Below are positions 2,730 through 34,036 of a DNA stretch of 64,000 nt, piece after piece. The notes beneath the pieces were generated by a model, which had not been told where the DNA came from, did not search any database, and was given only the letters and a program-made list of their open reading frames with translations. Both the position numbers and the translations under genes were made by a program. Origin of the DNA: Botryllus schlosseri (lineage: Eukaryota); assembly GCA_051294905.1 (NCBI GenBank), contig CM119371.1, positions 37,264,001-37,328,000 of the forward strand, in the 5' to 3' direction. The stretch's first letter is position 1, and each line of letters starts with the position of its first letter.

Positions 2730-3469
2730 ACTAAAAGATCTAACACATCGGGTCAAATATGCTGTTCTCTTGGTGCTTGAAGCAGTTTGACATGCATTGG
2801 AGATAAGTCACGTCCACTTGCACTCGGATGTAAAATTATGACGTCATGTCTACTTTCTAGCAATGCTGACTATTACAGTGACCAAATCTTCTTAAATTTC
2901 TATTAATTTTTACCATTAGAAATGAGTAACATCATAGTATCAATTTTCCGAAATAGTCCCTGTGTCTTGTTGGCAGAAAATATATAATATAAATATATAT
3001 GGATATATTACCGATTACTTTTCATAATATTCATAGTTCGGATGTGTTTTGGAAATCGAGGCCTCTGCTTGTACTAGAGAAGGTGTTTACGATGTTACCT
3101 CTTATGTTGTAAGTATAAATAATTTTTGTGTACAATTGAATGTTAAATTGATATTGGAATAAACCCAAATATTTTCGGTCGACACTCGTCATGGGTAATC
3201 GTCAACCACTAACCGAATATTCAAAAGAACATTATATATCAATATTCACATCAAATATTGACGTCAGAGCAGGCTTGTAATGACTCAAGTCATGACTCGA
3301 CTCGAGCGGCAATTTGTCGTTGGTTCGACTTGTCTTCAATCACGTTCCTAAAAAAAGATAATGACTCTACTCGACTCTAGTCAATTTCCGTATTGACTCG
3401 ACTTGTACTCGTGATATTACGCATGACTCGAACCAAGTCATTTGGCTCGAGACTCGGAGAACCAAAGTT

Positions 3470-3827
3470 GATCATCATCATCATTGGTTTATTAGCAATT
3501 TTATGAGTTTAATACACCACAAAAAATGCGATACAATGAAAAGACAGGAAGATGTCGAAGCGACAAGGAGTAGTCTATGGAATCTGACACCCACCTTGGC
3601 CTAGGCGATGTAAAGAGGAGGCATGCACACTGAATGAAAGTAAAGAAGATAGTATAGAAAAAGAATGCGACAAGAAATAGGGCGGCATGTCATGGGAATT
3701 TAAGACATTTCGTTGTAACTTCGAAGGATAGTTAGCTACCACATTATTGGTATTTCGTCTATCAGTACTGGCTACTGGTATTTGTAAAATAGGACCAGGA
3801 GCTCTGTAAAATGAGAAAGATTACTAC
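3470..3827 (-). mobile_element. Probable decayed 3' end of a LINE (L2/CR1-like)
   Basis: On - ends in a poly(A)-signal-like sequence plus (ATG)n tail, with a weak SFYRAP-like remnant upstream. Family assignment is tentative. Confidence 0.4.
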
Positions 3828-3838
3828 GTGGTGAATTG

Positions 3839-4379
3839 TTGTTGTTGTTCGATATTCATGGTGTTTCGACTACATTGGTCATTTTATACCAGGCCGTTAT
3901 TCTTTTTGTGATTCCATATTTACCTACTTGTAGCACGGACCACTTCTAGGCTTTTTTCAAAGACACCGCTTACGCGGAACACGTGGCGAGGAGGAGCCTG
4001 GATATACTTCCAATACTTAGGTAGGAGTTCTGGAGACGACCTCGGTCAGACTCGAACCCGCAACCCATTGGTGTCGCAGGTGTGGAACGTACCACCAGAG
4101 GTGGTCAGTAACGAAGTACTTCTACTTTTTGAAGTACTTGAAGTAGATTTTGCCTACTCGCACTACTTGATAAGTAATTATGATTTTAGATTACTTCTAC
4201 TTGACAGTTTTCAGTTTTTTAGGCAAAATATGAGTAAAATACTTACTTACTTACTAACTTGTGAGCCGCCTCTCCTACTTCCACTCGAGTAGAAATTCCG
4301 GCGTTACTTCTACTTCTATTTGTGCAGCGACGGTGACTACTTTGAGCACCTCTGCATACCACTACGCTATCTCGCGACG
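3839..4379 (-). mobile_element. tRNA-derived SINE (family 1), interrupted by a MITE
   Basis: On -: A box TAGCGTAGTGG, B box GGTTCGAGTC (about 4049-4058), (CAA)n tail, flanking GTGGTGAATTG / GCGGTGAACTG. Body aligns to 17394-17680. Confidence 0.85.
4096..4354. mobile_element. hAT-type MITE (CTACTT-rich) inserted in the SINE head
   Basis: TIR CAGAGGTGGTCA / TGAGCACCTCTG, TSD CGTACCAC / CATACCAC. A relative starts near 11932. Confidence 0.88.
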
Positions 4380-6053
4380 GCGGTGAACTGAAAATGACTC
4401 GACTTGACTCGAGTCAAAGCTATAAAAGTATAATTACCTTTTGAATTGGTTACAACCCTGCGTCAAAGGTATACAAAAGAGAATAATCGAGGGGAGCCTT
4501 CGGGTTTACTTCAATGTAAATATATCACTCACTTGTGTATTATAGTACAAAAATTGCGACCTCTAAATCAAAGACCAATCGCGCGATATAGCAAAGCTGT
4601 CAAACGTGGCAGGTAAGATCTATGTAGCGGTTGGAAACTTGAGCACGTTCGGCCGAATTCTGCGTTTGTGAATTGGCATCGATAAAATAAATCTCGACAG
4701 CTCGCAGATAACGGTGTTTACTGTTCGTTGTCTGGCATTGTTCGGGAATATTTGAGTGTTTGTGAGTTATTGGAACTTTCTGGGGGATCGAGATTCTTCT
4801 CTATAATGCCAGAGCATATTTTTGTTTGTAACATTGTTTTCGTGATGCCATAGCGTATTTTTGCGTTGCGATCCTGCTTGTAGTGCGGCCAACACCAAAG
4901 GGCCAAGTCATTTAACACAAAAGGAGCGGCTTATTATCGCTCATACCATCTCACGCGTCGCAATGTAGCAATTGTAGCAATTTTGAATCTGCGTATAGTT
5001 TGGAAGAAACATTTATTTGCGGAAGCCATTCTCGCTGTGTGGTCTTAATCTGCATTGTTCGCCGATAAATTTCAGGGATTCCCGCTACTGCACGTTTTGT
5101 GTTGTATATACCCGTGATTTATCAAATGTGAAGATATAGTGCTGTGATTGCGATTTTTTAAACGACGATTCTACAACAGTTGACATAGTATCGCGATGAG
5201 ATTGCTTCAATTTTATGTGTGAAATCGTCGTTAGAACATTTACCGCGTGAAATAACTCCCGCATCACAGTTGGACAACCGAAAAACTTTCCTTTTTTCCA
5301 AACTAGGTTGAAATTTAAACATCCAAATTCGCAAAAACTCGGAAATCGAATTCAATTCCTGATCAGAAAGAAATCAAAATCAGTTTATATCAAACAGAGT
5401 TAATTCTCATAAACATGACAATTCCGAATGTCTGAACACCAAGTGTGGTTCGTTTCGCGCTATACAGTTCTTTCGTAACATTTTCTGGATAACCAGAAAT
5501 TAGATTATAATCAAAATAAGAGCATAGAAACATTTCACAAATTGGATTAAAATTAGATTCGTCTTATTAGTTTAATCTGAAATTTTACCCTGTATCACGG
5601 TAACTGAATCTATTTCCGAAAATCGGTAGGCTACTTATTTGTAGTGTCATCAGCCATTTTGCGTTATATTACTTTCATAAAATAATTGAGTACTTTGACT
5701 AGTTTGGATACGTCTTCGAAATAGCTTTAATTGATTGGAAATTCACGGTGTCACTTCTACTTGAGTGGCTACGATGATTACGTTGACCGACTAAGTTATT
5801 TCGTAACAAACCTGCTCTTGTAGCTTATTTTTTCCGAATTTATTAATTCTAATTCGATATAATTTGGACACAACTGTGTAACTGTCATTTTGATTGTAAT
5901 CTAATTCGATAAAGCTGATAATTTTATACCTTTCCAACTCAGGCTGCGTCCGTGATTTGTCAAATGAGATGATGGTGCTTTGTCGGCTATTTTTGAAAAG
6001 AATATTCCACAAATTCGAGTCACTAAAGCAATAGTCGTTTCACTTAATGTAGA

Positions 6054-6744
6054 CACGGCCGAAATAGTACTTAGCCACGCCTCCCCTCAAACGATGGTCT
6101 TGGGCCTGCCATATGATAATAATCAAACTTGGGCCCCCTTCATGACGGGCGTTTTAGCCTCTAGCTAAAAAGCACGTTTTACTGTTACAGGGAGCATGTC
6201 TATGATGTTCCGTAGTCGCGCGAAGTGCGAGAAAATTTCATACTGAGGGTTGAATTATGTCTATAATACTGGTGATTGCATATATTGCTGATAATGTTTC
6301 ATCGTCTCCCAGTCCACGTGATTAGATTGACTGGTAGAGCTGATGGAGGGGAACAATTGGCTGTAGGCTATAAATATTGATGGTTTCGGCCAACATACGG
6401 ATGTATTTTTCGGCCAAGGCTTTTTTTGGTAACACACTTCACGAAGTCACATGTTGGCCGAAACTCTAGGAGTCTTTTTGTGTCGTGAAAAGGCAATGGC
6501 CGGCTCCGAAATGCCTATTTGTTTACATGAACGATATGCTTTTTGTTGGGGTCCTGCAGCTACCCATATCAAAAAGCAGACATTTATCGCGCGAAGCAAG
6601 CGCTAAGAAAAATTTTGATGTTGTACGAAATCTCCCACAAAATACTCTATAATTTATGTTGATTTGCGAAATAATTTTGGGCCCCCTTCGAGCTCGCCCC
6701 CCCGCCCCGATTGGGGGGTTTGGGATGCGTCAGTTACGGTCCTG
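6054..6744. mobile_element. Older relative of the 49362-50679 hAT element
   Basis: Right end nearly identical (ATAATTTTGGGCCCCCTTCGAGCTCGCCCCCCC...GTTACGGTCCTG), left end degenerate. Another partial copy at about 46833-47000. Confidence 0.75.
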
Positions 6745-7414
6745 GATGCTTCCTCTATATACCCCGAGATCAAACAAGTGTTCCCAATGACACCGATAAA
6801 TGTTTCCCATGAACATGTCGAAAAATTTATAACCGTCAAAATAAATTGCCTTTCGTATTGCGATTGGAGTTGTCGGTGCGGGATATTAAGGTTACGGGTG
6901 GGGGATATTAAGGCTGAGTCTTAGGGATATTAGGGTCGGAGGGGGTTAGGGTATCCCAAAGTTATGGGTTGTGGGTGAGGGATATCAGGGTTGTGGGTGA
7001 GAGGTATTGGGTTGTGGGTGAGGGATATTAGGGTTGTGGATGGGGGATATTAGGGCTGAAGGATGACAGATGTTCTGGTTGGGAGACGTTGGCGTTGGTT
7101 TGGGGATATTATCACCCCTGACCGTAATATCCTTCACGCCCAGCCCTAATGTCGCTAACTCCATCCCACCCAAACCCTAATATACGTCAGCCCCCAACCC
7201 TAATATCAGTCATTCCCCAACCCTAATAGTCGCCATTCTCCAAACCCTAATACCCATCATTCCCCAACCCTAATATCTGTAATCCCTCAACCACCCCCCA
7301 CCCGTACCGCTAATATCCTGCACCGACTAAACTAAATAATTTCTTTTGACTTGTGCATGGAAAACATTTATTGGTGTGACTTGTTTGATCTCGGGGGTAT
7401 ACCGACGAAGCGCC
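6745..7414. mobile_element. Foldback element whose arms contain GGGATATTAGGG / CCCTAATATC minisatellite units
   Basis: Imperfect inverted arms (TACCCCGAGATCAAACAAGT / ACTTGTTTGATCTCGGGGGTA), G-rich then C-rich arrays, flanking 8-mers CGGTCCTG / CGGTTCTG. Confidence 0.8.
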
Positions 7415-8272
7415 CGGTTCTGATTGTTCCTATGTTATGCTTTATACGGTGTTGATTACAAAGAGTATGGCGTCATGGCGAGGTCGTTCGAGGAACAAAA
7501 TCGAGAGAACACAGGAAGTTGGCGATTCGCCTTATTAATAATTGCTGGAACCGTTCACCATTTACCAGCTTTATTAAATCTAAATTGAAGGTTTTGTGCG
7601 TCATTCACCGGTTTGGGGAAATCTGATCCGTCAATCCAAAATGTACGCGTCAGGCGACCTTTTTGGGAAGATAAAATCAGCTTCACGAGACCTCCCGTCA
7701 AAGACGGGCTGTAGAGAGACTTTTCAAAGTACGCCGACTTGCAGACACTTAGTCGATTGGTTATGTTTTCAGATCACTGCCGTTTCTGCATCACAGATTT
7801 TAAAGCAAAACTGTGGTTGGAGTCAACTCGTTAAATCCATATCCAGAGATCAGTAATGCAGTAACCCAACTGTTTCCAATAAGTGCCTACTATCTCGTGG
7901 TTATGGTTTTAGACTGCTCCCACTCGTGGTTTACCAATTCTTTTAATCAAAACTACTTACTTACAAAAATAGAGGTAATGAAAATGTCATTCATGGTAAA
8001 TGTACCAAGGCGGTCAGCAATGGAGTACTTTTTGTCGAGAGCTCAAGAAGGATTTGCGTCCTTGGATTGATCACTCAAGTCGTAATTTTCTTGCGCTATT
8101 TTAATTCTTTCAGGCCAAACTGACTTTTTGACTGACTTGCCAAGAAATCGCGACCGTCACTTGTACCCAAGTAGGACTTTACGATATCGCTTTTATTTGA
8201 GTACCAAGGATGACCACTTTGACCATCTCTGACAATAATACAGACTTGCGTTTTTTCTACTTCCCTATTTAC

Positions 8273-8704
8273 TACGGTTGGTTACCATATGCCCTCCTTC
8301 AGAAGGATTTGTCCTCCTTTCTCAGGAAATCGAAAATTTCCTCAGAGGACGTTTAAGTGTCTTCTTTTTTGGGAATTCGCCCTCCTTTATAGCTGTGAAA
8401 GCCGGTCTAATGGACAGGCACAATTGAAAAAAACATAAATAACGCGAAATCTATAATGTGTGTATGTTCGAGTTCGGCAGCAGGACTGAAAAAGATGACC
8501 TTTTTTCTTTCTAGTCAACGCCACAGCAGTACTATTATAGAGTGGGTTATTCGGGAGTCGAGTCGGAAAAATAAACTTTTTTTAGTCAACAGAACAGGAT
8601 TTCCCGTAAAATTTCAGATCCAGCAGTTTTCTAGTCCGGTAATCTAACTTCTGTGATTTGTAAAAAGTGTCGTCTTTTCCAGATCCCAAAATATGGCAAC
8701 CCTA
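8273..8704. mobile_element. hAT-type MITE family A
   Basis: Right end ATATGGCAACCCTA, TSD CTATTTAC / TTATTTAC. Confidence 0.8.
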
Positions 8705-11300
8705 TTATTTACACATTTCAGACTACTTGCGATTATCATTCAAGCTTTTTATTCTTGTATGGAGAACTGCACTTATAATGCTTACTAATTTATTTGCATA
8801 AACATTTTTACATGTACCTTTAATTAGGTATAAAATTGCGAATAACTTCTACTTGTATTATATTACCAACGAGGTCTACTTAGACTAAATATGCTTCCTA
8901 CGCGGATTTGAGCCCGAATTTGTTTATCTTTGTTGGTAGACGTCTAAACTTTGGAGGCCTATCTCTAAATGTAGAGTATTGAAATTTTAGCCAAAAAAGA
9001 GTCCCCGAAAGTTTCAATATTTATTTTTTCGAAATTATTTAATGGCCGCGACTTCCTAAATCTATTTATTGCCGGGAAACGAAACCTTACCAACGCGTTT
9101 CACACAAAGCGGCGAAATGTAGGTAGTTTTAGAATCGGGTATTTATTTAGTTAGAAGGGGTTATTTAGACAATCGGGGGATATGAAATCATGGCTATTCG
9201 GTCACAATCGCGTTTTGGAATCTTCGTGACCGGATTCGAAATCTTGGCGGGCTTCGTGTTTGTTGTTTCAAGATCCAAATCTGGGAAGTCAGGCCTGAAA
9301 TGAATCGAGTGATCGACGATTGGGCGTAGACTATACTCGCTGCATTTAAAAGCAGACCAGGATCGCCAAAAACACGAACTCAGTTATCTCTTTGATCAGT
9401 GCTTCTCAACTTTGGCAGCTCGTTGATTGGTGAACTTTCAAAAAACTCAAAATCAACCCAAAATGTAACAAATGTATGCAACTCTTAACCAAATATTGTA
9501 ATCTTCAATGTAATGAGAACTACGCTGCCTTTAGATATGACTCGTGTTTAGATTTGACATGTAACAAGTCCTAAAGACGTTTTAGGATACTTCGAAGCAG
9601 TTTTGATACAACACTTGCTGCATTGTTACGTGCGTCGAAAGTAGACTCTCGATGTAATGAGAAATTTTCTGCAATGGCTTTTTGATGTAACACGTGTTAC
9701 GAGAGGTTGTATCGAAGTTTCTGTGAGGTGAAGTCCTGTTAAAAAAAACCACCAACACAATTTTTATTGTTTCCTTTCTTTTTAATGATATGCGACATTT
9801 TCTGTTTGATTGACTATATTTTATTGTCAAACTTCGATATACTGCACAGTCGAAATGCAAAGAATCGCTTTTTAAAAGCTTTCGCATAGACTTAAACGAG
9901 TTGTAGGCTAGTTGTCATCAGTTTTCTTGAATACTTGCTGCAATTTGATCATATTTGGTGATATGATGGCTGACAAACAATGTTGTTTTCAATTCTCGGC
10001 TTGTTGCTGACGATCAACCTTGACGAGTTTCAGCTGAAAATATTCCGGTTGTTTCAACAGGAATATATTATTTACTTATATATTGAAGTTGTGTACCCCT
10101 AAGAGTCCTTTGCAGCATTATAGCCAGACCCGACCGATTAGTATCGGTTCGCTGATAACATCGAGGGATGTCTTGAAGGGAATATCGGTGTCTTGAGTGA
10201 TTATTGCAAGTGGGCAAACCTTACTTGAGTGCTTCGAAGAAGCACTTGGTTACTGGTCGCCAGATGCAACTTAAGCTGGATAGCATAATTTTAAATATCG
10301 GCTTAATGTATATCGGGTTATCAGTAGATGAGCTTCCTTATCGATATCGGCTCAGAAACTCGATATCGGTCATTCTCTAATTGTAAAGTAGGATAGTTTG
10401 AAAGTATAGACAATGGAATCTATATTACAACGCGATACAGAAAATTACGTTCCAAATTTAGAAGTGGTTTTAAATTTGAATCTTCGTTTATTTAATTAAC
10501 TAGCTTCAACTTCATTTGCAACCGAGATAGCAAATTGCAATATCTTTCACAGACCGGCATGCTAATTGACACGCGTGAAAACCACTGCATTCGACCGTTT
10601 TATTAAAAACCAGTAGGATTTTAGCAATTCGTTCAACCTTTCAAATATGTTCACCTCGAATCGCAAATGTGACGAATGATTTTCAGTGAAATACCCGGAA
10701 ATCAGAGTTAAATGCATTCCGCTGAGGCCTAATTGAAGTTTTTAAAGTTCCATTGCTCGACCACAATATTGTTGTAAGATCTGATCGTTCATAAATCGCG
10801 ATATATCGCACCGAAACAGATACTCTGCCTCACTCGGTACGTCAGATAACGTTAAAGAGCCACGTGCCCGAACCCCTGCCTGAAATGGCAATCGAACGAT
10901 TGTGTCGAAACAGATGTCTCTTTAGAACGCACGCTTCAGATCTTGATCGATTTTATCGGAAGCGCGAGTTCAGGGGAAGGTCGAAAATATTTTATCGCGC
11001 TTTTAATAATTTCATGGACGGCGGAAATTTCAACGTTAGAAACCTCAAACTGCTTGTTTGTTTTAGAGATCTCACGCTGTTTCTAAACTGGTTGGGCTTT
11101 CTTCTGATAGCGAATCATCTAAGAAGGTTAGCTTAGAGTTGTAGATGGATTTCGTACTGTATGGAAAGTACTTTTGTGATGAGTTTGCATCACCTTAAAT
11201 TGCGCTAGTTAAGTCGCGATTACAACTTGGTTAAATATCCCCCGTCTAATGGTAACTGAAAATATTTTCGAAAACTGCACTTAATTGTAGTGACATAAGC

Positions 11301-11611: not shown

Positions 11612-13230
11612 TGTAACTTCTACTTTTTATTCAGTAGAAATCGACTCTGGCTACCCCCTGTTACGTGCTCACGTGCATATCTCAGCCAAACTAATTTGTA
11701 CTCAAGTGTCTCTTCGCTATTGTGTGAGTTAATCGACATCGCTGGTGATTTTAGTCTGAAGGGCCTTCAACAACGCAACACAAAAGGCTTCATTCACGTT
11801 CGACACTCGAAGATTCTAGTTTAATCTTGTAGCATCACACTGAGAAAGAGATTCGCTGCTGCAACGCTGAAATCGGGACGTTTCTAAATTGACGCGCGTC
11901 GTTGGGGACTGAGTAATCACGGGGATGCTCCCAGAGGTAGCCAGTAACGATGTACTCTACTTCTACTTCAAGCAAATTTTACCTACTTGCACTACTTTAT
12001 CAAGCGCGATGTTTTTAGGCTACTTCAATTTCTACTTCGGTTTTCAGTTTTCAATTGCATAAAACACTGTTGTTGGAATAAACCAGTCAATTTTCGGCTG
12101 ACACACTTCAACGGTAATCGTCAGCAACTAGTAGGTAATTCGAAAGTACTTCAAAAGATAAAAGTTGACGTCAAAGTTCATAAATGGAAATTTTTTATCA
12201 AAATACGCAAATCAAGTTTGTTTCAACAAAAGGAGCTCGAGCATCATCTAGATCTGTTCGACTCAATTATTAGAAATTTCATGCCTGTAACTCGGGTTGC
12301 ATTTAAAACAAACATATGTTTAAAACATGGACCTTGTTTAAAACATGTTTTTTTGTTCGTTTTTTTAGCCATGACGTCAAGAATCCTTAAATGTGACGTC
12401 ACAGTGGATTGACATTGACAATTGAAAATAAAGAGTAAATATGGCTCCTTTGACGAGAAAGGCTTCCGACCACTGTTATAAACGGACCAAAAATATCTTA
12501 TGCCAGGACTACATCGTTATGCAGTATATTCACGGTCGGCGGTCATCCAACCATCTGGTAAACGAGCTTAATAAGTGATGGCTGCTGTGATATGGGGTGA
12601 TTGTGGTTCGAAATCGTAATCGATTACATTGAAAAAGAAATCAAAGTCATCTTAACAGAAAAGATTGTTTTACAGATACAGTCGATTTCGCTTCATTTAG
12701 ATACCTTGGTTCCGATCACTTTTGTTCGAATTAAGCAGAAAATCAATTTCACGACTCATGGTCACGCATAAAGGCAGATAACGTGTTAAGAATACTGCAC
12801 TGTTGCGTAATAAATGAATTGCACCAGCGCTGCATTGCAGTAGCCTAACTGGCACTGGTCGCATAGAACACACAAGAGTTATACCTTCACAATTGCATCT
12901 CAATAAAAGCTACTACGCAGATGGCACGGCCTTATACAACTTCATTTTCGATTGACACTCCATTGGACAGCACTGGACCAGTACAAAACGCCAATCTAGT
13001 TTTTTTACGGTCAACTGCCTGCTGGTTTTTTGAGTAGGTCTAGTTTTAGTTGCGGATTTTGAAAAGAGAGTGGTTCTATTGTTCCAGTTGTAAATTTTTA
13101 AAAGTGAGTAGTTTTATCAGTAATGATTTTATTGTGGATTGTTACTTCATGGGTCGTCATTGCTTCACTGCGATCACACATTTTATGTTAAAACGAACGA
13201 AGTACTGTTTATTGTGTTGTAACATAGTAA

Positions 13231-14189
13231 AAGGGATGGTGCGAACCTCTGAAAGGTTCAGGTTCGTGTGAACGCGAACCTTTTTGAAAGGTTCTGTGTG
13301 AACGCGAACGTGAACCTCATGACGTCACGTGACGTCATATTGCTAATTCCAGCCCTATCTTTTAATGAAGTGATAGCCTATATTAATTTGCACGATACCT
13401 GGCGATGACTCGCGCCACATAATGCCACGATGCTGAAGTACATATTGGCGTTTTAAACGTCGCTAAATGTATCAACTGAGTCAATCAAATGATATAATAA
13501 TCCCATAAAATAAATATCTTCCGACGCTTTGCCGACAATTTCGACGAGGACTTGCCTGGGAATATAAGCTTACATCTTAAAAGTCTAGGCCAGACCAGAC
13601 AATGCATTCGGCGTCTGATCATTGCTACATTCATATTGAGCAGAGTGTAAAACAGGTTTCTATACTTGCTACTGATATTACCCCGCAAGTTATACAGCTG
13701 TAGCCAACACCTCAATCACACGGATTTGGTTTTAATAATACAGTAAACCTGCTATATTTGTTACATCAGAAAACGATATCAATCTCGTTTATTGGTTGGA
13801 TAAGCATCATTTGCTGACCACATGTAGTGTATTTCGCTCGTGATGTTGTGTGATTGCGGGTCAATACCACAGCAGAGAGTCACTAAATATTCACAACCGG
13901 AAAGCTGGATATTTCGAGCAAACTTTTGTAACAATTAAAGCAAGTAAAATTTTTGAGATTGTCAAGGGGCGTGCTCGTTTTGTGTTGATTTTTTTTCAGC
14001 CAGCATCATGCATAGAGTTGAAATGCAATAAATTCGAACCAAAGATGTAATAGTGACGTGAAAATTGTATTATATGAAAAAGGTTCACAGTGCAGAACCT
14101 ACCAAGGTTCTGTTGTGAACGCGAACCTCTAAATTTCCGAGGTTCACACACAGAACGCGAACGTGAACCTCACGTTCACACCATCCCTA
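13231..14189. mobile_element. hAT-type non-autonomous element with GAACGCGAACGTGAACC repeats
   Basis: Ends AGGGATGGTG / CACCATCCCTA, flanking ATAGTAA on both sides, colinear with 56169-57160. Confidence 0.88.
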
Positions 14190-17319: not shown

Positions 17320-17393
17320 CACGACACACGAAAGTTGATAACATCGAGAAACAGATTCTGAACTTGATGCCACCGTCAAAGCAGTCAGTTGAC

Positions 17394-21107: not shown

Positions 21108-23073
21108 CTCATAGGTGACTACTGTCCAAATTGCAGACTGCATCTTGGTGAATCACGCGAAATGATCGATGAAATAAGCAGAAAATTGACGGGAAAGCGT
21201 TTAAGACACAAATTGCGACCTACTAACTATATGGAAGAACGATCTCTTGACTTCATGTCACGGAGATCATGGTTTCAGCAACACTCTCGGTTATATGCCT
21301 CATTTTCAATTTTTAGCGAAATGAACAGGAATCGTGTTTTTAATTGAGTTCGAGTGTGTGTCAATTTCTGGAATAGTCTTTGTTTGTTGTCAGAGTCGAC
21401 AATTTGTGTAAATTTCCAAATCGCGACGACATAATTACCGGCATCGATAATTGTACGGAGAGGTTTTAAGCGGTTCTAAATCTGACTTTGCCATTAGCGA
21501 CGCTTTGATGAGGCCGCGAAAAGTCGAGTGTTTCAATGCAGAGTCAGATAACTATAGTACTACAACTAAAAAACTTCAGACTTTCCATATTATAATAGAA
21601 ACTGAAATTATAGCCACACAATTATTTCTATACTATAGTAGTATTAGAATTATTGAATTCGCAAAAACAGCGATAATCAAACTCAATTCCTATCAAATCA
21701 GCGGTCATTCCCATAAGACAGACAACGGCAAATGTCAGTACAGCCGAGTCAGTATATCGAGCTTTGCTATACAGTTCTGCTGTAGCATTTTGAGGGAAAA
21801 CTGAAATTAGATTAGAATGAATATTAGCGCATAGAAGCATCTCACAAATTAGATTAGAATTACATTACCGGCATTTTCTATAATTATACAACTATAATTA
21901 TTTAGTTGTCCAAGTCTTGTTTCAATACAGGCGATTCCATGAGTATTGAGGTGATTCAATCTATTGCATTACACGCAGACTTTGTTTTACAACAAAAAAT
22001 AATTGACAAGAAGTATAATCAAAAGCAGATTCTCCTCTGGCTTTGCAAAAACCAAATCTTCATCTTTAGCGGTTCGCTGGACGCCAATTATTGTGCGATA
22101 ATGAATTAATGTGTGACCGCGTAAAGCGATCTGCTCTTGTCCGCGGTTCAAATTGCGCGCCCACAAAATACGGCTCTTAAATTTTTATCCCCTAAATTAC
22201 TTAATAAGTCAGGAGAATGTGAGTTTAACATTATCCAGTTGAAACACGGAGTTCAAGTTTCAGCGTCAAAATAAACGCGCAGAAATAGAAGCCGATTCGA
22301 AAATTTAACCATTCAAGAGTGGTAGGTTATCGCCGATATCTGCGCGTTGTGGCCAGAGTTCCGCATTTCTTATTCAGATCTAATTAAAATTAATTTTGTA
22401 TCGTGTCCATACCACAGTCTAAATCAGATAAATATCTTTAAATATGACGACATGGAAATTTAAAGTTAGAATTTTCAAGTCAAAATCTAAATTAATGGTC
22501 AAATTATCATAAAACCATGACCGACCCAAAAACCGCAAAAATCGGCAATTCGGCGCTCAGCAACTAGGGCCTTGTGCGCCGTGCCAGGTTGGGAGGGTTT
22601 ATGTGAGTCTATATTCCATTACATATAGTATCACAAACTCTTGAGTGTATCATCATAGGGTTGCTGAGTAAGGCATTGAGGTTCGACGAAAAATGTTGCA
22701 GATTAGAGACCACGTGTAGGTACAAACGCCAGCACTGCATGGTACGAACGGATCGTGCGGTTCGTAATCACCATCTGCGTTGGCCGGTAATGAATGCGCG
22801 TAGACACAACATGGCGCCGGCAGCCCTTTCAAATCAAACTTGCTTTTGACCTGCGCAGACTAGATCCAGGATGACGCTCCGTAATTATGGTCGTAATTGG
22901 ATGATTCGGGTGATGTTTTTGTTGGAAAGATTCCTGATTGCTTCAATATTGATTTCCAATTGGGTGATATGTTAATATTGAAATAAACCCGATTATCTTC
23001 GGCTGACACTCGTCGCGTGTAATCGCCAATGCCTGCAAAGTTATTTCAAAGTCTCTACTATTTTCTGGCGATT

Positions 23074-23107
23074 ACCCCTGAAGAGTGTTTGCCGAAAATA
23101 TTAGGAT
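23074..23107 (+). ncRNA. Minimal type I hammerhead ribozyme-like motif
   Basis: ACCC CUGAAGA GUGUUUGCC GAAA AUAU UA GGAU: intact core, palindromic helix III loop, one stem I mismatch. Confidence 0.55.
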
Positions 23108-26100
23108 TTATATTAATATCAATATAATATTTAATTGTATATTGCAGTTATGTACCTTCAACAGTCTCCTAGAATATTATCATGAATCTCAACTTTCTTG
23201 CCATGATATGCCAATTAGAATACAATTTTGTGTCTCAATTGCTAAATGCAACAAGTCGGGCGCTTAGAAAAATGAAACATCTAATTTTGAATGGACTCTG
23301 AAATTCTGCAACAATCAATATGTTCATATTTCCAAAATATTGAAGAATATCTGCAATATGAACATATTGTTTGTTACAATATCAAAGTTCAGTATTTGTA
23401 AAAGCCTGTTTTGAAATTAGGAACGTATTATTGCGTATCGTGTCGTAATACGTAGAAAACATAGTCTGATTTGGACTTATCTTACGTTTAAACGGTGCTA
23501 GGGTTGTGGTAGACTGTTTAAGTGGTAGCCTACAGCTCGTTCAAGACCAGTGCTGTTTGATAGGTAGGACGACTTGTTAAACAAAATTTGTTTCATGTCG
23601 AAAGTAAAATTTAACGAAATAATGCGAACAATCAAAATCGGGTTAGCGGTTTTTGACAGGACTTTGCCTGTAGCAGAAACCTCCACAGTATCACGTACTA
23701 CACGTGTGACATAAAGCAAATTTTCCCATTACATTGAAATGTACAATATTTTCTTTTGAGTTGGATACATCATCCGTACGTGCATTGCGGATTTATATTA
23801 ATTTTAAAGGTTCACCAGTCAGCTAAATTTACTTAGCAGTTATATCACTGTTACAATCTAAAAGACGGTTGGGAACAACTCCTCTACAGCATTCGTCGAA
23901 AGCGAATATGACATCGTGCACTTGCACCCCTGAAGTGTCTCGCTGCGAAAGACCGCGACGCTGACTATAGGCACTTAAGCCGACCGCAAATCGGTGGTTA
24001 GTGGCCGCGATATTAGTCACGTTCGAATGCCAGAAACTTTGAAGCAAATCTCTTCTGCGAATTGGTAGTAATCTTCCGATAAAAATCACGCCTTTGGAGG
24101 ACACAGAAGCAATATTTGTACGCGAGCAGCTTTTAAGCTGGACTACTTACTTTCTAGAATGTCGATTTCAAAATCAAAAAGTAGGTCGGGGATAAGTTTG
24201 CAGCTCTTTTACGCGGAAATAGTCATAAAAATCGCTTGAAAAAGCTTTTGTGTCAGCGTTACTGCATATATTTTCAAAGAAGCTTTAGTAATTTTACGCT
24301 TGTAACCAAGATACAATTTTCTAACGCATGAAGAAGCCACTGTCACTGCCATCATGCCACCTTAGATTAACTGCTTCAGGTATATGCCAACCCCTCGACA
24401 AATCTACATTTTAAAACTACTTCCAAACCTTTCACTGTCTACTTCCAATGAAGTAGCTTGGAATACTTGGCCTTTCGAAACAATTTTGACACAATTTTGG
24501 CTCTTTTTGACATGTCATAAAAAATCGCCATACTTATTAGGAACTCGCTACTCCTGCTTCTAATTCTGTATCTCATAGACGCTATTTCTACTTCACAATT
24601 TCCATTTTTGACCGGGAATGCCCATGCGTTTCAGAGCACACGAACAGATTTGGCACAGGCCTACTTGCACGACGTACTCAATCGGTATGGATTTAGATCA
24701 CTTCTACTTTACAGTCGTGGGTGCATTTGGGAAAACTAGGCATTCAATACCACTTTTCGACTTACTTCGAATTCAGTACTTCTGCTTGCAATTGAGTAGA
24801 AATTTACTACCTTACTGGTACTTAATTTAGTTTTCAGCGTTTTTCCAACATCTTTTGGGCCTAGAAGACTTATTTCGAAATCGGGAGTGGGAGCTTACGT
24901 TACTTTTAGTGTTAGTTGAATAGCACCGCTGAGTACTATGTCCACCTCTATAGACTTGCATGTGAAGCAATCAACATCTGTTCAAGTACTTCACGTTGTC
25001 CAATGCACGTTTCTGTACAAATAACATTCCCTATCGCCAGGTGGGTGTCCTATAGTCTATTTAGATACGTGATCAACAGAGACAAGCTAACATAGCGTCT
25101 TCGTAAACAAGTACGTCGGAATTCTAGGAAGATTTTAGTGTTTTGACCTGGTAATTCAGCGCTAAGCGACGTCGCCAAGCTTCTAATAGCTCGTCATTAA
25201 CGTTTAATTTATTTTTTCCCTCTAATTTGGAATAAGTGACAAAGTACCGCTCCACATCGCAGACTGTTGCGTCAGAATCATCATGCTGGTTACGACATTT
25301 GGCTTTGGAATATGTTTTGGCAACGTGACTAAGTTTAACCTGCGAGTAAGATGGTTCTAAAAGTCTAGTAGCGTCTGGAAAACATCACCTTTCGCGTGAT
25401 ATCAAAACACAATAATTACTGCATCGACTTGATTGCCGGCACGCAAGCTGCAATTAGGACGCGAAACCTATCGGGCGACCCACTTGTCACGTGCCTCGTA
25501 ACGACACTGTGACGCAACGGTGAGCATGGATCGTAAACAAACAACGCTGAATCATTGTCTAAAGGAGAAGTCGACAGTTCGGGATTTTTTGGATTAATCG
25601 TGAAGTGAAAATGATGAGAAAATATCATTTCTACTTAATTTCGGACGAAATCTTCCCGAATTTCAGACTGTCATCTTTTTGGGTCCACACTAGAGTGTAT
25701 TGCGACTGGTTTTCTTGAAAATGCTACAGGAGAATTGTATAGTGCGAAACGAGTCATGCTCTTGGTGTACAGAGATTTTCCATTCCCATGCTTATACGAG
25801 GATAAACTCTGATTTGATATGAACTGAACTTGATTTTTGCTTCATGTCCTTTTAATTTGGAATTTCCTTCAATTACCAAGTTTTCGCTAATTCAGTTACG
25901 CTAATTTTAATCCAAATTGAAACAAATGTGCAGCTGTCATTCTAGTTCTACTCTGATTTAAAAAAACGTAAAAACTTGTTGGTTGTCAAACTCTGCAAAT
26001 AATTTAATGACAAGTGTTGCAGCACATGGCAATCAGTAAATACGAGGGTTGTTTTAGGAAACACTTGAATCCGACATGCAATCGGAAGAATTAGACGATG

Positions 26101-26416
26101 ACTTTTGGCAACCGTTACTGTTACGCAACAGGCGTTAAAAAACTCGCGGAGAAGGGATCTTCAAATGAGTTCCGGGATCTCAAGAATAGTCTCAATTCGA
26201 AGCAAACGCAATACCAAGATTTTTGACTTAGTTAGTAGTAAAGGTGGAGGGATTTACAAGACGCGTAAAACTACTTCAAACGCAACGGCAAAGGAAAGGT
26301 CTAAAAGTGCTGAAAAAGTAGATTTGGTATATTTCTTTTAGTAGTTCATCGGACGTCAATACTATCGTAATTGCAAGATTTACCTTCGCAACAAGCGCAA
26401 AATCATGCATGAGGAT

Positions 26417-28534: not shown

Positions 28535-29409
28535 TAGGGCGAATTTATTGACAAGTCAAATTAAGCCAAAATTTTGTCAAAATTGTAGCGTTAGGTCAAA
28601 AAATTGTCAAAATTGTTTACAAAGTCAAAGCCTTTTTGCAACCTGCATTTCGTTTGTATCGTAGATGTTTGCACTGTCGGTGAACTTATCATTTGACATT
28701 TTACAGCTTGTAGCCTACTTTATAGGCCTACCGTCGTAGACGGCCCATTGTCTGCTCGTTGTGAATCATAAACGGTCAAACGAAACAAATAGGTTGACAT
28801 GGTGTTGTGCTCAACGTACCGCATTATCCCAACTGAAGCAAAACCGCGTGGGCAGGGCATTGGTTCGTATTTCAAGAAGAGCATGATGAAATATTGTGAT
28901 GTAGACAACATCGTCAGAATGAAGCAACACGGTGTGTCACCAACAGTATACGCACAACTTCAGTGTTGCCAGCCAACAACTGCTGCTGTTGAACGTTCTT
29001 ATTCTCTATTCTTGGCAGCTACTTAGTAAGGTCAGACACTTCCTACCCGAGAATGTAGGAAAGTATCTTCCGTTGTACTACAACAAATTTTAATTATTTT
29101 TACCACAATGCGTGACGTAACTACTGGAATTTTTAATAGGTTCAGATTTCGGTAAAATAAAGTTTTTTCATGTAAAAGTTTGTCAGTTTTCAAGTCAAAA
29201 AAGCTTTTTCATGTCAAACTACTTCGTAACGACATACAGATCCAACCAAAAATGAAGTAGTACAATTCTAACATTATGTGGGAAAACACCCAATTTACAT
29301 ACATGATGTCAAAATTTGGTAAAAATCGAGTTCTTTAGGGTAAAAAATGTCTAAATTTTGATTTTTTCATATCAAAATCTTGCGTTTTTAGGTTATAAAA
29401 ATTGCGCTA
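28535..29409 (+). mobile_element. Internally deleted hAT-like element retaining a transposase C-terminal remnant (about 28830-29093)
   Basis: TAGGGCGAATTT / AAATTGCGCTA ends, CTCATAAG on both flanks. Remnant QCCQPTTAAVERSYS...RHFLPENVGKYL resembles the hAT dimerisation motif and is frameshifted. Confidence 0.8.
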
Positions 29410-32039
29410 CTCATAAGAGATTTCGAGACGAAATTACATTGCATTTGATATCGCAGATAGCAGCTACGGGATGTGCTTGTATCAGTGAAATAGTCAACAC
29501 GACCAGGTGAAATATCCCACGCCACGTATAATGTTTATTAAACATTTTTTTTGAAAATTGGGCATATTTGTAATGTTACTCGTCATTTTGCGTTATTCAT
29601 GAAGCTCTGAATTTCAGCAGTAGCGATATCCGAGTAAATCTTAAATAAGTTCTTGAAACTGTTTGCATGAGTAGTTTCCAGATATACATTAGATACATCT
29701 ACTTTCTCTTTAAGTAGTTTTAAGATGTTTTGGAAGTTGCTACTTCCACTAGAGTTAAGTAGGAATTGACAACACTACTTCGACTTCCCCAAATATCAAC
29801 GCTTTGACATCCTCTGGGCGTAAATGTGGGCGCAATGGTAGAGCCTAGAGATTAATAATGTTTGGGCCGTGTCTCTGGCTGCGAATATTATTTGTATCAC
29901 CAATTCGCCATTCACCAGCCATTACTATACTCAAAGTCTCGTTGCAGCGAATTCGCCGCAGCGTCACAATTTATTTATCACTGAGCACTTTGCCAACGGG
30001 TTTGGCCAATTTTCGATCATTCATTGACAGCAATGGATCCATTCAACCCCGGTGGGGTTGGCTACAGATTTTGGGATTAATTCATCAGACGGTAGCTCTA
30101 CCGGAAAATTGGATATTCGCTTCAACGATTGCCAATGACTTCAATTCAATTACATTTAGAATTCGTGACAAGTCCAATCGCTTACAAAACATGGTGACGC
30201 CTCTGTCAACAGCCTGCGCGATTGTTACGACACAACAGTCGATCAAACGCCGTTTTACAATTTCCTGTCTTCGATAAAAGCTTGTGTTTGCTGTGACCCA
30301 TAATCAATCTGTCGAAGTCAAATATTTGCGACGAATTGTGCCATCACAAGCCATAGGTTTTCATTTCCCTTGTTTGATAACAAACATTAACACCGAGGCT
30401 GAGGCAACGTCACCATAGGCTATTCTTTAGAGGTATCCTAGTTGTTTTCAAGGAGCTACTTTCGAGCAGGGCTGCGCGAAATAGAGTGCCCAAGTGATTA
30501 GGTTCCAATTCGGGTATTGCCTATGATGACGTTAATAATCAACTATAAAGGTAAAGAGTACCTTTTGTAGCCTATGTTACACGTATTCAGAATATAGTTC
30601 GTTGTTCATGATGTTTGGACTGCTATAGTCATTTACACCGGGCCGATATTTCGATCGTGATTCCTGATCTGCCGACTTTTAGCACGGTCCACTTTCGTTC
30701 TAGGATTTATTGTAAGACACAGCTTACGCGGATCATATGTATCCAATGTATTTTATAATTCTTGACCATGCGGACTAGACATCGCGCTTTGTGATAATGA
30801 CGATAGCCGAAAACTACTACCGGAATTGCCATTTCTTTGAATATATAGGCTTGTGTAATATGCTTGGTAATGCTCAATGCTGATTGTTGAGTTACGACCA
30901 ACCCAAGCTTCGAGCCTCCCGCAGTGTGAAGATAGTTTCGACTCGAAACATTACAATACATGCTTGGATTAGTGTATCGGAATCGTTGTTGTCAGCCCTA
31001 CTTGCCAAGTGCTCCATCCAACTGTAGATAGGTTTCAGTAGTCGACACAAACTTGCAATTTCGCGAAGTGCCTCCCGGTTGTTTTGAAGATGTGACTTGT
31101 CGGAAGTACAATTCTTGTTTATATTGGTTGGAGCTACCGAATAGCCGTACAGCATCCATGCATGCGTCTAACACTTGACGCAAAACTCATAGTTTCGTTC
31201 TTAACCATCAATGTATAGATTTAAGAGGCTAAATCTTTGTTCACTAGCCTACAAATCGCTTTTCGATGTCATTAGCGAACTCCAACGAAACTTTAGGAAG
31301 GCCATTACATCAATATCAAGATACCACAACATCGACTGGCATGTCGCGATTAACCTCCCAGACGCGTTTCGAATGATAACGAGCTAGAGACTGCTGTCTG
31401 TGACAAAATAATGATCGTGTTATTTGTTGATTGTGGCGTCAAACTTGTATTTAATGATCGCGGCCAACACGGGACTTGAGAAATGGAAAAGGCTGGGAAT
31501 ACTACGAATGGCTCACAGGCTGCTAGTTTGATTCGCAAAGCAAATAAACGGAATGTATGAGTAGCTTGTTAACTCGTTGCTTGGTAACAACATGGTTATA
31601 AGCCTGTGGTCTGGCACGAGGCTTAAATCGTCTTCGAATTATAACTGCATCTCATTGCATGGTCGAAAGACATTGAAATGTGGATGGCTGCTGTCGATTC
31701 TCCTGATATAGAGGCAGTCTATGTTTAGATGCCCAAGGCAGATTTACATTTTAGATCGAATATTCTTTTTGATTTAAATTTTTCGGCGGCCTAATGTTTC
31801 TTGTTTTCGCGTGGAAGTAGTCGAAATCTCGATAGCGATTTCACGCTCAGAGTAACAACAGCAGTGTGTTTGTCTGAGATATGCCAGATTCTGCTTCAGT
31901 AGCGAATTGCGTGTGAGGCTGAAACAGCCTAGGCACCGTAAGACAGTCAGATTTGGGAGTTTTAGCGCAAAGAAAGGTGATTAGTAGGACTGGGCAAAAT
32001 CGACTACCTCAGTGATTTGATTCTTACTCGAGTATTAGG

Positions 32040-32443
32040 TAGGTTTACCACACGTCCTCTTTTAAGAGGATTTGTCCTCTGTTTTGACTTTTTTGAAAGT
32101 GTCCTTGGAGGACGCCCTTTGGTCCTCTCTTTTGAGATTTTGTCCTCTTATTTGAGAATTTCGATCCAATGTACGGCCAAATTCGACTGAGATGCCGTAA
32201 ATCAGCACCGCAGTGACGCTCCGGCGGGTATTTCGGGAGCTGAGCCGGAGTGTTGTCCTTTTATTTAGTCAACCAACTGATAATGTGAAGGAAAAAAACA
32301 GTATTTTGGGCGCTGAGCGAGAAAGTTGAGCTGTTTTTTAGTCAACCGACTACGAAGTGGGAAAAATTTACCATATTTTCAGGATTTTCCTCCGATTTTG
32401 AAAAAGTGTCCTCTTTTCAGATTTCCAAAATATGGTAACCCTA
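32040..32443. mobile_element. hAT-type MITE family A nested in a family B copy (about 31984-32870)
   Basis: TAGGTTTACCA / TGGTAACCCTA, TSD GTATTAGG / CTATTAGG. Confidence 0.88.
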
Positions 32444-34002
32444 CTATTAGGTCTCTAGTTAAGCATTGCAGTATCACTCGTTTTAACATCATGGGAGCAC
32501 ATACGACGTAGAAGGTTAGATATGTACCTTCTATGAAATCACGAACACAATAACGCTACTTTTCAACCACATTTAAGATTTTATTTAGCATTTTTTCGGC
32601 AATACCGACTTGATTACACTTCGTGACAATGTTGCGGGTTGATCTCTGCTCTCCATTTATGTTATTTCCACTGATGTGAATAGCTTTGTGATGCGTGTTT
32701 CGTATGCTGTCATACGATCAATCCGGGTTTCAAGGCTTCAACCTTGAGAAAAAAGTATCGGGACTGTAATGCTACGTGAAAATATAACTCTTATTTCAAA
32801 GAGGGGTATTAGTTTAGGCAATGGGAAATAATGTTTAGGACTTGTTTCGGATTCGAGTACCCGGGCCTAACCGTTGCCAGTCCGGAAACACATGTGAATG
32901 AATAGTTACGTGAATGAATGGGATCATGAGTTGCGAAAGTGCGAATCGGTGAAAACTTAGCCATCGGAATCACTCTAATTTACGATCTCTGTTTCAAAAC
33001 ACTCTCCGATCTCAAGTGGCTTCAAGTCTGAACGCGCACGCTGAGTAAACACGACACTGCAAACTAGGCAGAGTCTTACACGCGTTACAGTCGCGAATCA
33101 AAGGCCTCACGCGAAGCAACAAGGTAGACTAACTCGTAGTCAGGCTTGTAGTGAGCCATGAGAATTGTGGTTACCTCCAAGGCCGCAGAAACATGAATTC
33201 TTCACGTCGTATTTAAAGATATCGGCAGAAAACAGACCTAGCAAAAAGCCGGCTTATCTTTCTGTGTTAGTTTTGCCAGCACGGTGCTATTGAGCCCATT
33301 CACACAAGTTTCAATTGTGACGCAAAAGACACATCCGTGTGTTAAATTCGCCGCGGCGAGAAAGTGGTTTTGCAGGAATTGGCCTAGGACTATAAGCCAG
33401 ATACAATGTTGGCACCCAGTAGACTTTCTAGTCGGTGCAAAGCTGCACCATGAATTGGCGACAGTGGTGGTAAAACTTTACATTGAAATTCAATACTGTA
33501 GTACGCATTACAATGGCGAACGGCTCTAGGTAAACTTCAGGCAATGGTTGCGAGCCAGATATGAATAACGCAGTGAGAACGCTAGCCTCAATTTGGCTTC
33601 CTAGTAGTTGCAACGGTCACGATCTCGCTAAGAGTCGGCTGCAGTGATAGCAATACTTAAAAGTGAAAATCAGTATCGGATTACGCATAACATCGGGAAC
33701 GGCTTTAGCGCCAATCTTTCCATGTTATTGAACCGATTTTGTCAAATATATCTCTGCGCGAAGATGGCATATTTGTATCTCAATGATAAGTGTTTTTGAC
33801 CCGTCTCCTAGCCAACATTCAAGTGCACCAGTCCAGGCATCCCACTGGTATATTTCGGAAAAACGGTGATGTGGCTGCTAAGAAACCCAGATAATCCCAG
33901 ATCCTATATTTCACCAAATTTCAATCAGATAGCCCTGAAATTGGAAAACGACACTCAAGAATTTCAGTCATACAATTAAATAATATATCTAGATCGAAAT
34001 AA

Positions 34003-34036
34003 ACCCGAATGTTTTCTGCTGACACTCGTCAGGGGT
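34003..34036 (-). ncRNA. Minimal type I hammerhead ribozyme-like motif
   Basis: RNA sense ACCC CUGACGA GUGUCAGCA GAAA ACAU UC GGGU: conserved boxes, UH site and 4-bp stem I. Confidence 0.6.

Follow-up and report, generated by a model that had tools for sequence, protein, structure and literature searches.

Dispersed ascidian repeats as probable Penelope-like insertions carrying a predicted pseudoknotted type I hammerhead

Six related 34-nt motifs lie on both strands of the 64,000-nucleotide stretch of ascidian DNA analysed here (the window), raising the question of which element left them there and what RNA fold they encode. The original prediction had described them as about six copies of a minimal hammerhead ribozyme of Penelope or retrozyme type; all six were found in the window sequence with coordinates and strands correct, and a fuzzy search (up to 5 mismatches in 20 nt) returned the same six and none further in the window. 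Pairwise identity among the copies is 59-76% over the 54 nt compared. A profile of the copies added two pieces, one at 4499-4546 (+) that corresponds to the 3' half only (E 6.7e-6) and the other, at 34092-34152, an inverted arm (E 5.8e-11), against a best score of E 2.4 in the reversed window. The repeat proved much longer than the motif, at 100-135 bp per arm. As argued below, the repeats are probably short, old, 5'-truncated insertions of the pseudo-LTR (pLTR) of an endonuclease-bearing Penelope-like element (PLE), with a predicted pseudoknotted type I hammerhead inside (Table 1). The source may have been either an element of full length or a short non-autonomous derivative.

Structure of the insertions

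The copies are arranged head to head with variable arm lengths, one arm stopping after about 7-8 codons and the opposite arm extending a further ~32 nt, as the PLE tail. Each arm would be ordered as a short piece of 3'-UTR, the hammerhead, a 14-nt leader and the first ORF codons. An inverted, 5'-truncated partner is clear in two of the five insertions (22952-23172 and 33970-34153), weak in two and unclear in one, and the head-to-head junctions vary among copies in comparisons with reads and contigs. The tail is limited to one arm in three of five insertions, neither arm being clearly tailed in the other two; it is one-sided as well in L021, one of the metagenome relatives described below, and a one-arm tail of 30-40 bp has been described for PLEs in the available text of PMC8557442. 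Signs of target-site duplication are weak in the window: with hand-chosen boundaries, p was about 0.04, 0.04 and 0.11, and the first two values belong to flank matches of 6/6 nt at the 22952-23172 pair and 7/8 nt at insertion 5.

Translated, the tail gives the opening ~18 codons of a PLE reverse-transcriptase ORF. In a ranking of 3938 fragments by an N-terminal profile of 82 PLE proteins, which excluded window sequences, the tail at 34108-34149 came first (E 0.061). Three window tails align from residue 2 of proteins P0089, P0065, P0072 and P0067, so that the ATG of the family would be Met1 of these proteins. The tail alignment score of 110 was reached by none of 500 controls, the best of which scored 109; among 116 proteins scanned over their whole length, only 24 had the best tail position within their first 30 residues. 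PLE coding in the window amounts to about 18 codons, with no full ORF of reverse transcriptase plus GIY-YIG endonuclease. As the original prediction noted, no reverse transcriptase partner is visible: none of 246 frames of at least 60 aa holds a reverse transcriptase or GIY-YIG remnant, and tblastn likewise found none in the window; nor did an autonomous partner of the family come to light. The search that had been proposed for tandem copies and adjoining RT/GIY-YIG ORFs was empty within the window, but the tail itself holds an ORF start. Together, the head-to-head variable arms, the one-sided tail of ~32 nt and the ORF start in that tail support the Penelope origin that had been suggested.

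Similarities to canonical endonuclease-bearing PLEs, as far as these are described in the accessible portions of PMC8557442 and PMC11167929, include the 5' truncation, the adjacent inverted truncated copy, the tail of 30-40 bp at one end and a hammerhead adjoining the ORF start, whereas the window lacks a coding body. The predicted cut lies 14 nt before the start codon here and 19-22 nt before it in the relatives L016, L019 and L021, in contrast to the Anolis PLE, in which the cut falls 26 nt after the start codon (PMC11167929).

Other features of the window were noted in passing. The region 23311..23411 includes a frame of 18 codons beginning with ATG (23358-23411), together with a short inverted partner; the N-terminus profile placed it fourth of 3938 (E 2.9), and DNA profiles gave E 0.15 and 3.9. 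An Atlas search with the ORF at 48575-49096 gave no match above 0.79. The window is also rich in fold-back elements, and its Rfam matches of miRNA type are fold-back repeats.

Table 1. Positions of the insertions and of their predicted elements in the window
Feature	Position	Strand	Remarks
Insertion 1, sense arm	3128..3231	-	Motif 3163-3196, C3 mutated; short arm, no tail
Insertion 1, inverted remnant (weak)	about 3233-3261		
Seventh fragment	4499..4546	+	nhmmer E 2.8e-5 and 6.7e-6; starts at about U16.1/cleavage site; no catalytic boxes
Insertion 2, inverted short arm (weak)	about 9939-9966		
Insertion 2, sense arm with tail	9981..10113	+	Motif 10016-10049, C3 mutated; tail score p about 0.006
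Insertion 3, sense arm	12044..12150	-	Motif 12082-12115; C3, A9 and U16.1 mutated; no tail
Head-to-head pair, left arm	22952..23036	-	Motif 22987-23020; C3, U4 and A15.1 mutated; no tail
Head-to-head pair, right arm with tail	23037..23172	+	Motif 23074-23107, core letters complete (alone of the six copies), stem I 3/4 pairs; tail p about 0.004
Head-to-head pair, right arm, start-codon position	23118-23120		Mutated
Possible head-to-head remnant of a related PLE without hammerhead (weak)	23311..23411		
Insertion 5, sense arm	33970..34088	-	Motif 34003-34036; G10.1-C11.1 broken; no tail
Insertion 5, PLE start-codon position	33990..33992	-	14 nt past predicted cut; mutated here, ATG in family majority
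Insertion 5, predicted cut	between 34007 and 34006	-	
Insertion 5, loop II, predicted partner of 34041..34046	34018-34023	-	GUCAGC
Insertion 5, predicted pseudoknot 5' strand	34041..34046	-	Family majority GCUGAC
Insertion 5, inverted arm with ~32-nt tail	34092..34153	+	Reads as N-terminal codons of PLE ORF

The hammerhead and its predicted pseudoknot

As the original prediction stated, the window copies have core mutations: five of the six are broken in the core or in the helix II pair, so that CUGANGA, GAAA and UH, in order and with G10.1-C11.1, are complete in one of six. Position C3 reads C in two copies, T in two, A in one and G in one, being absent from four of six, and the catalytic positions are kept no better than their neighbours within the window (88% versus 84%). 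The window copies appear to be decaying passively, and most of them are unlikely to cut.

The family beyond the window was examined in public reads and contigs mapped at a threshold of 80% likeness. The interval 33750-34349 received 5733 contig pieces from run X2, 1019 raw RNA reads from X14 and 974 from X18, most of them on the two arms; summed contig depth does not equal copy number and was not so used. These thousands of related pieces agree with the claim that the repeat is spread through the genome. Their majority letters restore the hammerhead core together with an ATG 14 nt past the predicted cut. C11.1 is restored in 93% of X2 depth and in 672/777 and 500/568 RNA reads, loop III at 98%, and positions 34044 and 34046 of the predicted pseudoknot 5' strand in 96-97% of contig depth; at the two mutated positions of the ATG (33992 and 33990), the family letters account for 90% and 61%. 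C3 rests on the reads, with no alternative letter at 34032 among the rows listed (40 of 100). The consensus with both catalytic boxes therefore stands for the family majority in reads, but not for the window, where C3 is not the majority letter. The same flank was found in run X6 ('organism B') with 5 differences in about 220 nt, and because the difference is so small X6 is not treated as an independent taxon.

The family majority, with CUGANGA, GAAA and UH in order and G10.1-C11.1, is predicted to form a type I hammerhead having a 4-bp stem I and the single G10.1-C11.1 pair as helix II, with no extra nucleotide after A9. The 7-nt loop II would form 6-7 bp with the bases immediately preceding stem I on its 5' side; stem III with its loop would be a self-complementary 6 nt. 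Covariation supports this fold. The 6-mer is fully self-complementary in three of six copies and in the family majority, and in copy 3163 the putative pseudoknot has 7/7 pairs, one of them changed on both sides. The type I hammerhead with short stem III that had been proposed is thus supported; three features had escaped the earlier reading, namely the pairing of loop II with the 5' flank, a tail confined to one arm and an ORF start within it. A loose hammerhead descriptor finds about 1.2 sites per shuffled 64 kb, and because this corresponds to about 0.002 per repeat-sized stretch, the fit of the family consensus is unlikely to be due to chance. With E values up to 10 allowed, Rfam gave no hammerhead family for the window or for the relatives L016, L017, L019 and L021.

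Other pairings and boxes were also considered. Against the predicted fold, the nested minimum-energy structure of the six-copy consensus, computed with a program that cannot score pseudoknots, consists of three small hairpins, and the box that comes first in the catalytic core is buried in them (pair probability about 0.85). The window consensus favours a hairpin between the first box and loop II, but this hairpin is unconserved, none of its five pairs being changed on both sides. A second CUGACGA box 10 nt upstream of the core was rejected as the catalytic box, since it has no G10.1, offers a poor stem I and is replaced in L016, L019 and L021.

Relatives were sought with a descriptor that left the pseudoknot positions free; the core letters were imposed by the pattern, so the core of the relatives is no evidence. 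Fifteen metagenome matches were obtained, and a perfect 6-bp partner in register was present in five from four loci (L016, L017, L019 and L021), that is, in five of the seven metagenome matches having a 7-nt loop, with pseudoknot letters that differ from those of the window family. A palindromic loop III, again of other letters, is found in four of these five. The remaining 10 of 15, with at most 4 complementary letters at scattered places, were taken as chance matches; a covariance model gave at most 17 bits for the 8 of 10 listed, compared with 53-64 bits for its own building sequences, which match by construction. None of 73 prokaryotic matches reached 5 Watson-Crick pseudoknot pairs, and 10 earlier prokaryotic matches, without the layout of stem III and cleavage site, were likewise rejected as chance. 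Viral contigs gave 0, 0, 0 and 1 matches, the one being without the pseudoknot, and no P0009 relative; the 24-letter family motif itself had no metagenome match.

A PLE ORF is tied to three of the four loci. In L019 the motif lies about 70 nt past the stop of an ORF that is 85% identical to the 825-aa reverse transcriptase P0009, and an ORF start follows the motif; L016 and L021 contain pieces of the same P0009-like ORF. The L019 family has an ORF of reverse transcriptase plus putative GIY-YIG endonuclease, for which Pfam gave RVT_1 only, the endonuclease being called from motifs by eye. L021 is a young head-to-head pair with a 10-nt flanking duplication; L017 is the closest relative, and no PLE ORF was found there. 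Across 10 distinct rows, aligned by hand with the pseudoknot as anchor, both-side changes occur in 4/6 pseudoknot, 2/4 stem I and 2/3 palindrome pairs, and the covariation score was reached by none of 500 shuffles. These counts overstate independent events, since the rows come from approximately three families that are independent of one another: that of the window, L017, and L016/L019/L021. In stem I, 90% of cells are paired, but for the metagenome rows the search pattern itself prescribed three of the four pairs.

Lunse, Weinberg and Breaker reportedly mention, for hammerheads generally, a pseudoknot that joins loop II to the nucleotides preceding stem I, and the window architecture may already figure in their alignments. 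In the literature searched, with the Lunse variants compared via citing papers only, there was no account of a pseudoknotted hammerhead with 1-bp helix II in PLEs or ascidians. The PLE hammerheads of Cervera and De la Pena (2014) have a long helix II and an extra nucleotide after A9, and helix II is shorter than 3 bp in none of the 56 motifs of Fig. S3 (PMC4209133); the original prediction's statement that a 1-bp helix II is the established PLE architecture is thus unsupported. As they appear in that figure and the accompanying text, the minimal PLE motifs share with the window family the type I topology, short stem I, CUGANGA and GAAA boxes, G10.1-C11.1 and palindromic short helix III, as well as the occurrence of mostly solo truncated copies and of opposite-strand pairs 100-700 bp apart. 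They differ in a helix II of at least 3 bp and the usual extra nucleotide, and the predicted pairing of loop II with the 5' flank distinguishes the window family. The short-stem-III PLE hammerheads of Lunse, Weinberg and Breaker (RNA Biol 14:1499), described in PMC6765202 and PMC6466107 as cleaving as dimers, are similar in PLE association, diminished stem III and palindromic loop. Perreault et al. (2011) reported pseudoknots in all three hammerhead types as needed for fast cleavage, including a fast type II metagenome hammerhead with 1-bp stem II and a 6-bp pseudoknot (available text of PMC3088659). The window family resembles these motifs in having a predicted Watson-Crick pseudoknot in place of a loop-loop contact; the 1-bp example is type II, from a metagenome, with a normal stem III, whereas the window family appears to be type I, probably dimer-type, in an animal retroelement.

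Alternative readings of the repeats

The closest alternative retains the PLE origin and supposes that the motif does not cut, the helix of 5' flank and loop II being a plain hairpin acting as a signal for protein binding or reverse transcription, with the hammerhead letters vestigial. Nested folds of L019, L021 and copies 3163 and 23074 indeed place the catalytic box in the loop of the 5'-flank helix, reads do not pile up at the predicted cut site, and, in the part of PMC11167929 available, insertion of the Anolis PLE in vitro needs no cleavage and RNA-seq is without cut ends. However, stem I and the stem III palindrome also covary between families, which a simple hairpin would not need, the family majority retains the core letters checked, and the fast type II example (PMC3088659) has the same combination of 1-bp stem II and 6-bp pseudoknot. 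This reading is considered improbable.

A non-LTR retrozyme, in which a short non-coding unit is copied in tandem via circular RNA and the window copies are solo monomers, is rated very improbable, even though the unit is short, non-coding and in high copy number with no partner ORF nearby. Retrozymes resemble the window family in being short non-coding repeats with a type I hammerhead and kinship to PLE pLTRs (PMC7229834; bioRxiv 10.64898/2026.07.22.740005, both in excerpt); they are said to derive from such pLTRs and often to be monomeric (bioRxiv 10.64898/2026.07.22.740005), and one X6 contig has a go-back joint of 76 nt. However, as these sources describe them, retrozymes form head-to-tail arrays with canonical helices and, where studied, abundant circular RNA, none of which was seen here. 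The pairs are inverted, not direct; the 20 Tandem Repeats Finder rows of the window contain no tandem array of the unit; and neither X14 nor X18 shows a go-back joint among 15 of 16 joints listed, although library selection could remove circles. RNA reads number only about 1000 per 10-13 million, and a tail on one arm that contains an ORF start is typical of a PLE insertion. The retrozyme part of the original prediction is not supported, given the lack of tandem copies in the window and of go-back joints among those listed for the RNA runs. That the hammerhead is a chance likeness in the inverted repeats of a MITE or DNA-transposon end is scarcely credible; the DNA-transposon end had been named beforehand as the refuting case. 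Inverted repeats do bound the insertions, the window has many fold-back elements and Rfam gives no hammerhead match; against this, arm lengths and junctions differ between copies, there being no fixed symmetric terminal inverted repeats, the two ends are unlike with the ~32-nt tail on one, the tail matches PLE N-termini in register, and L019 has the same RNA fold after a PLE ORF. The variable arms, one-sided tail and N-terminus match exclude this case.

Possible cleavage and significance

With insertion of a Penelope-like pLTR as the favoured origin, the family motif would be expected to self-cleave after C17, probably as a dimer. The putative pseudoknot would stand in for the usual loop-loop contact and hold stems I and II parallel; in the active dimer, two motifs (in tandem pLTRs or in two RNAs) would swap the palindromic stem III, perhaps aided by the element's own protein. 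A cut after C17 would give an RNA beginning 14 nt before the AUG. In two RNA runs, read to 6% and 13%, read ends did not accumulate at the predicted cut or elsewhere; the libraries look unstranded, and standard libraries are uninformative on cut ends. For 22000-24000 no RNA run was listed as containing the sequence, which carries no information on expression.

A broader proposal, which we regard as rather doubtful, is that these elements represent a PLE clade with an undescribed hammerhead sub-type (1-bp helix II, full pseudoknot of loop II with the 5' flank, dimer-type stem III), missed by Rfam and by helix-II-dependent descriptors, in which a cut 14-22 nt before the start codon creates or licenses a translated RNA. 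A similar role in translated RNA has been put forward for RNA-virus hammerheads of type I with a short helix II (PMC13725137). The same fold might account for some of the 'core-only' PLE cases of Craig et al. 2021, because their spacer range of 7-17 nt covers the 9 nt found here.

Since PLE hammerheads are well known and those in the window are fossils, there is nothing unusual in the basic finding, and the variant is of modest weight. The role of PLE hammerheads has been called unresolved in the literature; the minimal PLE motifs published so far are poor at cleaving, and no tertiary contact has been recognised in them. The window family brings together a candidate tertiary contact and a predicted cut just ahead of a start codon, and provides a small construct with natural compensatory mutants for asking how PLE hammerheads function. 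Because the covarying fold escapes standard models, hammerheads have probably been undercounted in genomes rich in PLEs.

Insertion layout and Penelope-like ends

All six hammerhead-type motifs of the original prediction, named here by start and strand as 3163(-), 10016(+), 12082(-), 22987(-), 23074(+) and 34003(-), were found where claimed. They are 59-76% alike across 54 nt and are the best-preserved portion of arms of 100-135 bp. Profile search of the window added an inverted arm at 34092-34152 and a 3'-half fragment at 4499-4546. The fragment starts only a few letters from the predicted cleavage site, like a copy of cleaved RNA (a single case).

The insertions are arranged head-to-head: 22987 is paired with 23074, copy 34003 is partnered by an inverted arm (34092-34153), and in reads the junction positions vary among other copies. 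One arm carries a tail, an extension of about 32 nt absent from the other arm, in three of five insertions. The window insertions share two traits described for Penelope-like elements (PLEs) in PMC8557442: a neighbouring copy, inverted and 5'-truncated, and a 30-40 bp tail confined to one end. The three tails have one common open frame. With an N-terminus profile built from 82 full-length PLE proteins, tail 34108-34149 ranked first of 3938 window fragments (E 0.061, modest), and jointly the tails align from residue 2 of several PLE proteins, in the neighbourhood of an ILKFC-like motif; none of 500 controls reached the score of this alignment, the best being one point short. The codon aligned with Met1 is mutated in the window copies and is ATG in the read majority (positions 33992 and 33990), 14 nt downstream of the predicted cut after C17. 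The one-sided tail, the in-register match to PLE N-termini and the ATG at the Met1 position together exclude a MITE. Flanking duplications of 6-8 nt in two insertions are weakly supported.

A retrozyme origin, also proposed originally, is not borne out, the window having no tandem array of the unit. As stated at the outset, no reverse transcriptase partner is visible in the window: remnants of reverse transcriptase (RT) or endonuclease were found in 0 of 246 frames of at least 60 aa. A small inverted pair at 23311-23411 may be a sister-family remnant that lacks the hammerhead; the frame that opens its right arm is ATG-initiated and similar to a PLE N-terminus.

A probable pseudoknotted fold and the decay of its copies

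The spacer from A9 to G12 is nine letters, comprising G10.1, a 7-nt loop and C11.1, and six or seven of the loop II letters are complementary to a stretch 10 to 4 nt upstream of stem I. In copy 3163 all seven pairs of this pseudoknot are intact, one being changed on both sides. A descriptor that placed no constraint on the 5' flank or on loops II and III gave 15 metagenome matches in 14 loci. Five of these, from four loci, show an unbroken 6-bp pairing in register, spelled with different letters, and loop III is palindromic in four of the five; the remaining ten have at most four complementary letters, in scattered places. A comparable descriptor had 73 prokaryotic matches, none with at least five Watson-Crick pseudoknot pairs. 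In an alignment of 11 rows (10 distinct), changes on both sides were seen in 4/6 pseudoknot, 2/4 stem I and 2/3 palindrome pairs, and in no pair of the competing hairpin. The distinct rows represent only about three independent families, so this covariation is evidence of a strong kind in small number.

A 1-bp helix II had been taken as established minimal PLE architecture; this does not hold, as helix II has at least 3 bp in all 56 motifs in Fig. S3 of the PMC4209133 supplement, and the window family departs from that published consensus. Rfam has no matching model for the motif in the window or in loci L016, L017, L019 and L021, metagenome loci with a related motif. No description of the pseudoknotted 1-bp-helix-II architecture in PLEs was found in the literature searched, Lunse et al. 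lying outside it. Such pseudoknots, for hammerheads at large, are reportedly mentioned in the abstract of Lunse et al., and the variant may therefore already be in print.

The core mutations suspected in several copies were confirmed: only 23074 has complete core letters, G10.1-C11.1 is broken in 34003, and C3 is absent in four copies. In the window copies, catalytic positions show no stronger conservation than those next to them (88% versus 84%), as passive decay predicts. Of four runs aligned to 33750-34349 at an 80% likeness threshold, two contributed contig pieces (5733 and 1170) and two raw RNA reads (1019 and 974), the bulk of this material falling on the two arms of the 34003 insertion. 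Their majority restores in copy 34003 both C11.1 (93%) and the palindromic loop III (98%), and corrects the letters 5' of stem I to GCUGAC (96-97%). Mapping is biased toward the reference, yet majority differences within the core were picked up at two places; C3 and other core positions had no alternative letter among the 40/100 rows listed. Thousands of matching pieces imply a large family, read depth being no measure of copy number. The RNA reads, on both strands, showed no end pile-up over this interval.

Other features of the window

The inverted-repeat element holds two consecutive frames (175 and 174 aa, 48036-49099) that have no Pfam or Atlas assignment; some short motifs in them may resemble the C-terminal part of P-element-type transposases. 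The palindrome and its shorter relative give rise to miRNA-type Rfam matches, and the nested fold-back is built on a short ACTCGAGTCA-type repeat family scattered across the window. The host exon has no Pfam family; the only named protein related to it, at 29% identity, is an uncharacterised one of Styela clava, which points to an ascidian host.

Coordinates of other features in the window
Feature	Position	Description
Inverted-repeat element	47751-51257	3.5 kb; 270-nt inverted repeats, 96% complementary
Near-perfect palindrome	51385-52021	637 nt; 314-nt arms, 87%
Shorter fold-back copy	39784-40156	related to the palindrome
Nested fold-back	59420-61933	about 2.5 kb; arms 83-97% complementary
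Two tandem arrays	6869-7059 and 7147-7292	22-23 nt; related units, opposite orientation, facing
Dispersed repeat, two copies	13244-14148 and 56184-57112	about 900 nt; blocks 84-94% identical
Long host coding exon	36663-38066	467 aa stop to stop; only long exon in window

Metagenome relatives and proposed cleavage

L019 has the motif about 70 nt downstream of the stop codon of an ORF that shares 85% identity with P0009, a protein of 825 aa that has an RT domain and whose C-terminal region, judged by eye, appears to be a GIY-YIG endonuclease; the first residues of the ORF come after the motif, 19 nt beyond the predicted cut. Absence of a zinc-finger linker ahead of this putative endonuclease in P0009 suggests the Penelope/Poseidon clade (compare PMC8557442). 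Pieces of the P0009-like ORF also occur in L016 and L021, and by sequence these relatives tie the pseudoknotted fold to PLEs. Of the four loci, L017 most resembles the window family (79% over 47 nt), and a search there for a PLE ORF found none. In L021 a young pair of head-to-head copies, tailed on one side and flanked by a 10-nt duplication, sits in a gene with a DUF4371 match. Both pseudoknotted hammerheads of the pair are intact (L021:609-1000), and the insertion site, duplicated on either side, is splice-donor-like; as a test construct this insertion would serve better than those in the window.

In the parent-element RNA, the pseudoknot would align stems I and II in parallel, an arrangement demonstrated in a type II hammerhead whose stem II is 1 bp and whose pseudoknot is 6 bp (PMC3088659). 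Through an exchange of their palindromic stem III, two motifs would make up an active dimer, a behaviour reported in PLE hammerheads (PMC4209133 and PMC6765202). For the window consensus as a monomer, the predicted fold is three hairpins in which the first catalytic box is buried; low monomer activity would be in keeping with this, and so would protein-assisted cleavage, which is described for an Anolis element (PMC11167929). Cleavage would leave an RNA beginning 14 nt ahead of the AUG. About 7-8 codons remain in the short arm, and the long arm extends some 32 nt further; these ends match the two internal reverse-transcription start sites described in the Anolis paper (PMC11167929).

The hammerhead-type motif was correctly spotted and is real. 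It works like and belongs with PLE hammerheads, its catalysis being predicted, and is a variant of that known kind, sitting in fossil PLE ends. It is improbable that it represents an overlooked hammerhead sub-type that cuts just upstream of the start codon to license translation.
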